Source of the DNA: a virus
Lineage: Duplodnaviria; Heunggongvirae; Uroviricota; Caudoviricetes
Direction: 5' to 3' (one strand)
IMG/VR virus record: IMGVR_UViG_2534681835_000017
Coordinates: 1-5,021 of that record
DNA: 5,021 nt
Position 1 is the stretch's first letter. Each line of letters opens with the position of its first letter. A program made the position numbers and the translations under genes. The notes under the pieces were generated by a model that saw only the letters and a program-made list of their open reading frames with translations, did not search any database and was not told the DNA's origin. This document shows, piece by piece, positions 758 through 1,222 of the stretch.

Positions 758-1222
758 ATGAACACAAAAATCAAATACGGCCTGTCGGCTGCCGTTCTGG
801 CGCTGATTGCCGCAGGTGCTTCTGCGCCTGAAATTCTCGACCAGTTTCTTGACGAAAAAGAAGGTAACCACACCACGGCATACCGTGATGGTGCGGGTAT
901 CTGGACCATCTGCCGTGGAGCCACCCGGGTGGATGGTAAGCCTGTTATTCCTGGCATGAAGCTGTCGAAGGGGAAATGCGACCGGGTTAACGCCATTGAG
1001 CGTGATAAGGCGCTGGCATGGGTGGAGAAAAACATCAAAGTGCCACTGACTGAACCCCAGAAAGCGGGGATCGCGTCATTCTGCCCGTATAACATTGGCC
1101 CCGGTAAGTGTTTCCCGTCGACGTTTTATAAACGAATTAATGCAGGCGATCGCAGGGGAGCGTGTGAAGCGATTCGCTGGTGGATTAAGGACGGAGGCAG
1201 AGACTGCCGATGGCGGAGATGA
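758..1222 (+). CDS. R: SAR endolysin (T4-lysozyme-like muramidase, phage 21 R21 / RrrD-like), C-terminus apparently shortened
   Basis: 154-aa ORF. N-terminal weakly hydrophobic Gly/Ala/Ser-rich segment ([20 protein letters not shown]) typical of a signal-anchor-release domain. Catalytic E-x8-D-x5-T motif seen directly ([16 protein letters not shown]). Colinear with R21 as recalled through ...[22 protein letters not shown], but ends WRR* where R21-type enzymes continue about 15 more residues. No obvious Shine-Dalgarno before ATG 758; a 36-nt AT-rich spacer precedes it. Confidence 0.85.

Follow-up and report, generated by a model that had tools for sequence, protein, structure and literature searches.

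We conclude with high confidence that positions 1209/1210 of the window, that is, the whole 5,021-nt stretch of DNA analyzed here, mark the scar of an approximately 18.6-kb deletion in the late operon of a lambda-like, PPompW-type prophage of the O111:H8 DEC8E lineage. The window is the entire contig AIGJ01000029.1 of draft assembly GCA_000249875.2 from Escherichia coli DEC8E (O111:H8), and all genes and hairpins described below lie on its plus strand. An earlier note on this DNA had proposed that a large deletion fused a shortened endolysin gene (R) to the 3' portion of tail-tip gene J, a reading that is borne out by base-level comparison with the prophage of O111:H- strain 11128 and with phage PPyecE_EH1910. 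The ancestor resembled the 11128 prophage, with holin, ORF186, a 177-aa SAR endolysin, an Rz-type lysis protein, terminase, portal, capsid and tail genes, a 1158-aa J, lom, stf, tfa, and IS1, and an illegitimate deletion joined endolysin codon 151 to J codon 842. The endolysin consequently reads three out-of-frame J codons (WRR) and stops, with loss of the C-terminal 26 residues of the lysozyme fold; J is left as its central-fibre and receptor-binding part, and the spanin gene and all virion morphogenesis genes have been removed. The endolysin and J remnants are most likely nonfunctional pseudogenes.

First, the breakpoint and the deleted content can be read by comparison with the best reference, the same-site prophage of 11128 (NC_013364.1), in which the R-to-J module is complete. 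Window positions 378-1209 align without gaps to positions 563-1394 of the 11128 locus (L005) and window positions 1209-5021 align to positions 20001-23821 of the same locus; therefore, 18,606 bp are missing from the window. The corresponding gap relative to PPyecE_EH1910 is 21.7 kb. In 11128, the interval from R to J encodes the 177-aa lysozyme, an Rz-type lysis protein, terminase, portal, protease/capsid, tail genes, tape measure, and the 1158-aa gpJ, which agrees with the claim of the earlier note that spanins, cos/terminase, head and tail genes, and most of J are missing here. Identity to 11128 is 100% over 350 nt to the left of the junction (860-1209) and over 785 nt to the right (1209-1993). 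Homology to the endolysin gene extends up to G1209, and homology to J runs from G1209/A1210 onward, both in three-way base alignments with 11128 and PPyecE_EH1910 and in BLAST matches, which end or start at 1209. The ancestral endolysin side reads …GGCAGAGACTGCCG|TATCCGC… and the ancestral J side reads …GCGGATGAG|ATGGCGGAG…, with G1209 alone present in both, a 1-nt overlap at 1209..1210. The mapping of the breakpoint to the nucleotide that had been proposed, along with a check for microhomology, thus yields 1209/1210 and a single common G; no further microhomology or direct repeat was found at the two ancestral endpoints. A nearby 7/8 match between GGCAGAGA (1196-1203) and GGCGGAGA (1212-1219) is out of register with the junction.

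The same comparisons bear on the possibility that the window contains a natural gene boundary, that is, a short endolysin gene followed by an independent, translationally coupled gene for a receptor-binding protein. The ATGA overlap between the two frames is what such an arrangement would look like, as is the start of the J fragment at a methionine just upstream of the central-fibre domain. However, the endolysin matches listed from 341 phage records all stop at window position 1209 and carry full-length 534-nt genes, and the J matches listed from 453 phage records, obtained with positions 700-2300 as the query, all begin at 1209 inside full-length J genes. J homology also begins at 1209 among the matches listed from 1,653 E. 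coli genomes. Furthermore, a single one of 5,426 complete genomes has the arrangement, and the other members of both protein clusters are partial sequences at contig ends. According to the earlier note, natural endolysins ending at WRR, together with independent genes of about 339 aa in intact phages, would count against a deletion; no full-length endolysin ends at WRR, and J homology continues upstream in the matching phage records. Based on this analysis, a natural boundary has a negligible chance of being the correct reading.

Second, the deletion junction is present outside of the draft assembly. An identical junction is present in NZ_CP077465.1, the finished chromosome of DEC8E (E. coli O111:H8 strain 8E), and over 1..2147 the draft matches this chromosome with 100% identity. 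The differences between the two are an additional T at 2148/2149 of the draft and, in the collagen-like repeats at 3636-3945, substitutions together with a 9-nt indel. No other genome among the 5,426 complete E. coli genomes covers the full window or a junction-spanning query of 161 nt. An identical 41-mer across the junction is found in four further contig types from about 11 other assemblies, which brings the number of drafts with the junction to about 12 altogether; these four contig types end 26-154 nt beyond the junction, inside J. An assembly artefact, in which the draft wrongly joined endolysin and J copies of different prophages, might have been suspected because both genes are multi-copy repeats in EHEC genomes, because the short draft contig that makes up the window has repeats (holin and IS1) at its two ends, and because draft and finished genome disagree at 2148 and in the fibre repeats. 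The identical junction in the finished chromosome and the identical 41-mer in four other contig types, which run 26-154 nt past the junction, leave this explanation with hardly any probability. The junction is rare, and the identity of its sequence across the carrier assemblies suggests a single origin. In the PGAP annotation of NZ_CP077465.1, the two genes are already flagged as pseudogenes ("lysozyme, incomplete, missing C-terminus" and "phage tail tip protein, incomplete, missing N-terminus"), and this is ordinary prophage decay.

With regard to the mechanism, no IS sequence was found at the junction. The lysis cassette of the O145:H28 PPompWs was lost by IS-mediated deletion (PMC8112680), whereas the DEC8E deletion runs from inside R to inside J with 1-nt microhomology and is IS-independent; we rejected an IS-mediated origin since the junction is without an IS and the IS1203 copies of 11128 are located elsewhere and are absent from 8E. 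Judged from its bases, the junction is the product of illegitimate, essentially homology-free, IS-independent recombination. No observation speaks against the deletion as such; the sequence would be compatible with one step or with several nested deletions, and we infer a single step. A 5-bp hairpin native to the endolysin gene (GGCAG-AGA-CTGCC; 1196..1208), read from the sequence and present in the minimum-free-energy fold, ends one base 5' of the breakpoint, and any role for it in the deletion is speculative.

Illegitimate recombination between two prophages would also produce a junction of this type, with R of one element joined to J of another and the intervening chromosome lost or rearranged. 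EHEC prophages often recombine, and strain 8B has a PPompW x PPydfJ rearrangement at this very locus, a kind of exchange also reported for PPompW prophages (PMC8112680). Nevertheless, the flanks of the 8E element, yciI on the left and 'ompW-yciE on the right, are both those of the single 11128 prophage, and the sequences on the two sides of the junction are both 100% identical to that prophage. We therefore consider an exchange between prophages to be very unlikely and favor a deletion within one element.

Consistent with the proposed deletion, the endolysin gene (758..1222) encodes a truncated SAR-type GH24 protein of 154 aa that is made up of 151 native residues (758..1210) followed by WRR and the stop codon TGA at 1220-1222. 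The nearest full-length endolysins are 177 aa in length (534-nt genes), such that 26 native residues (IRSNNCYGQVSRRDQESALACWGIDR) are gone and three foreign ones have been gained; the shortfall had previously been put at about 15 residues, which is too low. Residues 8-23 form, by reading, a weakly hydrophobic Gly/Ala-rich SAR segment that aligns with the N-terminus of R21 (3HDE residue 5 onward), and the catalytic E35-x8-D44-x5-T50 spacing is present and aligned with the R21 segment. The protein thus resembles R21 (3HDE/3HDF) and RrrD (4ZPU) in its Gly/Ala-rich SAR segment, its E35/D44/T50 spacing, and its GH24 fold, but it has no counterpart of the last ~20 residues of R21. PF00959 covers profile positions 2-114 of 125 in the window protein versus 2-125 in the 177-aa homolog of 11128, and the structural homologs R21 (3HDE), RrrD (4ZPU), 7M5I, and P22 lysozyme (2ANV) all run past the equivalent break point. 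The 154-aa endolysin does not have a complete phage-lysozyme domain with its C-terminal helix. The truncation presumably removed this helix and probably abolished activity as well. Ten substitutions relative to the 11128 endolysin gene cluster at 764-859, in the 5' end that encodes the SAR segment, and the next 350 nt are identical. This patch looks like a short gene conversion from a paralogous prophage endolysin. Because these mismatches show that some recombination or gene conversion took place in the lysis region, we regard 11128 as a close model of the ancestor and not as the literal ancestor.

On the other side of the junction, codon Met842 of J begins, in phase 0, at window position 1210 (J nucleotide 2524). 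The J remnant comprises 317 aa, codons 842-1158 of 1158, or 27% of J; the earlier description of it as the 3' third of J was correct as to the end of the gene and too generous as to the size. PF09327, the lambda-J central-fibre domain, is found at aa 30-157 (E=3.3e-24), and PF12421, the C-terminal receptor-binding domain of J, at aa 194-314 (E=3.9e-35). When full-length J is aligned with lambda gpJ, residues 1-834 match lambda 1-836 and residues 863-1157 match lambda 837-1131. This alignment in two blocks places the start of the remnant in the linker that connects tail-tip body and central fibre. The remnant aligns with lambda gpJ 837-1131, the central fibre and receptor-binding domain, and J residues 1-834, which correspond to the N-terminal tail-tip body (lambda 1-836) required for tail-tip incorporation, are all deleted. 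By this alignment, the remnant keeps the whole fibre/receptor-binding module and is without anything that would anchor it in the tail.

The reading frame noted previously is present in the sequence, including the TAA in the J frame at 1186-1188, the ATG codons at 1210 and 1219, the ATGA overlap, and an ORF of 339 aa at 1210..2229. The length of 339 aa does not survive comparison with the finished genome and the reference J genes, in all of which the extra T at 2148/2149 is absent (GGTTATC versus GGTATC), and the product is one of 317 aa. Reference J genes end in TAGISIS*, with a stop codon equivalent to window position 2163. The extra T shifts the frame of the last four J codons and adds 22 residues (26 altered), and the frame thereby continues through a terminator-like hairpin with a T-run 3' of J (2183..2210; terminator scan) to 2229. 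The extra T is probably an error of the 2012 draft assembly.

One feature in favor of expression of the J fragment is the ATGA overlap, in which ATG 1219-1221 overlaps the endolysin stop codon TGA 1220-1222. The overlap was created by the deletion. The suggestion that the fusion provides a coupled start holds with regard to the overlap but not with regard to a new start codon, as the ATGs at 1210 and 1219 are both native internal codons of J (…ADE-M842-AE-M845-KTT…). No terminator-like site was found between the endolysin and the J fragment in the terminator scan, and no sigma-70-like site was found upstream of the J fragment within the window in a simple promoter scan. The Shine-Dalgarno geometry is poor for both ATGs, with GGAGG 11-12 nt before ATG1210 and GGAG 0 nt before ATG1219. 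The hairpin at 1196-1208 overlaps GGAGG, the candidate Shine-Dalgarno sequence of ATG1210, and this ATG is paired in the predicted fold, the stability of which is not significant relative to shuffled sequences (z=-1.6). The ATGA arrangement is not conserved in functional relatives, being present in one of 5,426 complete genomes and in none of the phage records among the matches listed. Termination-reinitiation at ATG1219 would be allowed by the overlap, and late transcription would presumably depend on Q from elsewhere because the prophage is without its own early region. Expression of a free J fragment is thus possible on the evidence of the sequence, and a function is not indicated; we infer that the fragment is nonfunctional.

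The remainder of the window consists of the genes on either side of the two remnants. Positions 1..160 contain the 3' end of a class II holin gene, which is truncated by the contig boundary; it corresponds to the "class II holin family protein" at 19945..20160 of the finished 8E locus (L001), and in other contigs this gene matches PF04971. The holin and endolysin genes are separated by an ORF of 185 aa with no assigned function (164..721), which matches phrog_1085 (unknown function; E=2.9e-111) and the hypothetical protein WP_001015158.1 and for which a Pfam search returned no match. The slot between holin and endolysin is variable; it is empty in 8B, holds an ORF of 345 nt in PPyecE_EH1910 and one of 990 nt in Stx2_95, and the counterpart of the 185-aa ORF in strain 11128 is split by IS1203. 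Downstream of the junction, the lom and side-fibre genes remain intact, as the earlier note had supposed. The lom gene (2232..2831) encodes an Ail/Lom outer-membrane beta-barrel that covers the full PF06316 profile (positions 1-199 of 199; E=2.1e-120) and is followed by a second terminator-like hairpin with a T-run (2858..2889; terminator scan). The side tail fibre gene (stf-like; 2896..4200) has collagen-like repeats and matches PF08400, PF01391, and PF06820, and a small tfa-like gene (4202..4471), assigned from PF06820 and from its annotation, is annotated as a tail-fibre C-terminal-domain protein. In the collagen-like Gly-X-Y region of the side-fibre gene (3636-3945), the draft and the finished DEC8E sequences differ by 18 substitutions and the 9-nt indel, which is probably due to repeat collapse or to mixing of paralogous fibre genes in the draft; the collagen-like fibre repeats may themselves be truly variable. 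About 200 bp 3' of tfa is an IS1 insertion, of which the left end (4677..5021), read from the sequence with its IRL (GGTAATGCTGCCAACTTACTGAT...) and insA, is present up to the contig end (annotated "IS1 family transposase"; PF03811 and PF12759). The order J-lom-stf-tfa-IS1, with a full-length J and about 98% identity, is common to prophages of O157:H7, O103:H2, O145, O45:H2, and O111:H- strains. This distribution implies either that the IS1 insertion is old or that the module spreads as a unit.

In the finished 8E chromosome, the element has the order Q, holin, R', 'J, lom, stf, tfa and terminates in a 3' ompW remnant adjoining yciE. Its position at the ompW locus and its lambda-like late gene order are those of a PPompW prophage, and its losses preclude virions, since terminase, portal, capsid, tail tube, and tape-measure genes are lacking. 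No integrase, repressor/immunity-region, or replication genes are annotated in the 8E element. The left half (yciI | recombinase … Q … holin-ORF186) is alike in 8E and 11128, including the left end with its recombinase-family gene and a 5'-truncated DUF1627 gene, and the right end is also alike, with IS1, a protein kinase, a transposase remnant, the 3' ompW remnant, and yciE. The 11128 prophage has the same degraded left half and yet keeps its morphogenesis genes; therefore, the prophage was already grounded before the R-J deletion. The suggestion that the deletion made the prophage non-inducible is accordingly set aside, as the integrase and immunity genes were already gone, just as in the left half of the 11128 element; what was lost through the deletion was the ability to make virions and probably to lyse the cell, not inducibility. 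In 8E, 8B, and 11128, yciI directly adjoins the left end of the prophage (L001 5737-8600; L006 14244-17100). On the K-12 map, tonB, yciA, yciB, yciC, and 5' ompW presumably lie between yciI and ompW, and they are unannotated at these prophage left ends.

A related prophage in 8B (NZ_CP077473.1; L002 ~21546), 95NR1, and 95JB1 carries another scar, in which a point 7 nt after the antirepressor stop codon is joined to J codon 793. This junction is in phase with a 1-nt overlap, and about 20.6 kb is missing relative to PPyecE_EH1910. The 8B-type prophage is flanked by yciI on the left side and by ydfJ on the right, an arrangement that implies PPompW x PPydfJ inversion. The right-hand endpoints of the 8E and 8B scars are 146 bp apart. 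Given this proximity, and given that the two O111 prophages bearing these scars have a left half in common, the 8E scar could be thought to have arisen from the 8B type, with the antirepressor|J793 junction formed first and a deletion of about 1.1 kb then removing that junction. Such a secondary deletion is exceedingly improbable, since 8B is without ORF186, has a different endolysin allele, and has the right arm of a ydfJ-site prophage, and since the lysis region of the window matches that of 11128, which has no deletion. We continue to favor an independent deletion from an 11128-like prophage.

The closeness of the two J endpoints may be a coincidence (n=2), and this one pair, 8E and 8B, hints that retention of the fibre module could be non-random. 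The endpoints at codons 842 and 793 are both located just upstream of the body/fibre linker and leave the module intact, from which one could argue that the J remnant is not junk. In DEC8E the module follows the ATGA overlap in phase, and no terminator separates it from the late promoter. Q from a co-resident lambdoid prophage might allow its expression, and the product could then, for example, poison rival J trimers; alternatively, selection might keep the module as a cassette for host-range recombination. We regard these ideas as improbable.

The DEC8E element is consistent with what is known of its family. The PPompW prophages of STEC/EPEC were described by Nakamura et al. (2021, PMC8112680): such elements occur in 44% of complete E. 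coli genomes, every one of them is apparently defective on account of deletions, IS insertions, and pseudogenes, and they readily recombine with prophages at ydfJ. The prophage of the window is likewise located at ompW, has a lambda-like late operon, and is defective, and recombination with a ydfJ prophage is seen in 8B. The ompW-site prophage of 11128 (NC_013364.1) matches the DEC8E element gene for gene and has the same flanks, but it keeps the 18,606-bp interval from the 3' end of R to the 5' end of J and has two IS1203 insertions that are absent from DEC8E. The K-12 cryptic prophages Rac, Qin, and DLP12 are also remnants of internal deletions, with scattered late genes (lom/stf/tfa-type in Rac; lysis in DLP12 and Qin) and no virions (PMC6379469). 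Their integration sites and breakpoints differ from those of the DEC8E element. We know of no R'-'J fusion in K-12.

Thus, the case fits established prophage decay and the universally defective PPompW elements, and its wider weight is limited. The 339-aa "hypothetical protein" and the 154-aa "phage lysozyme family protein" of the DEC8E draft are artefacts of the deletion and should not seed protein families. The junction 41-mer could serve to mark a sub-clade lineage of O111:H8. For the biology of these elements, the junction records, to the base, the loss of morphogenesis and lysis functions from one EHEC prophage that has kept lom and its side-fibre genes.
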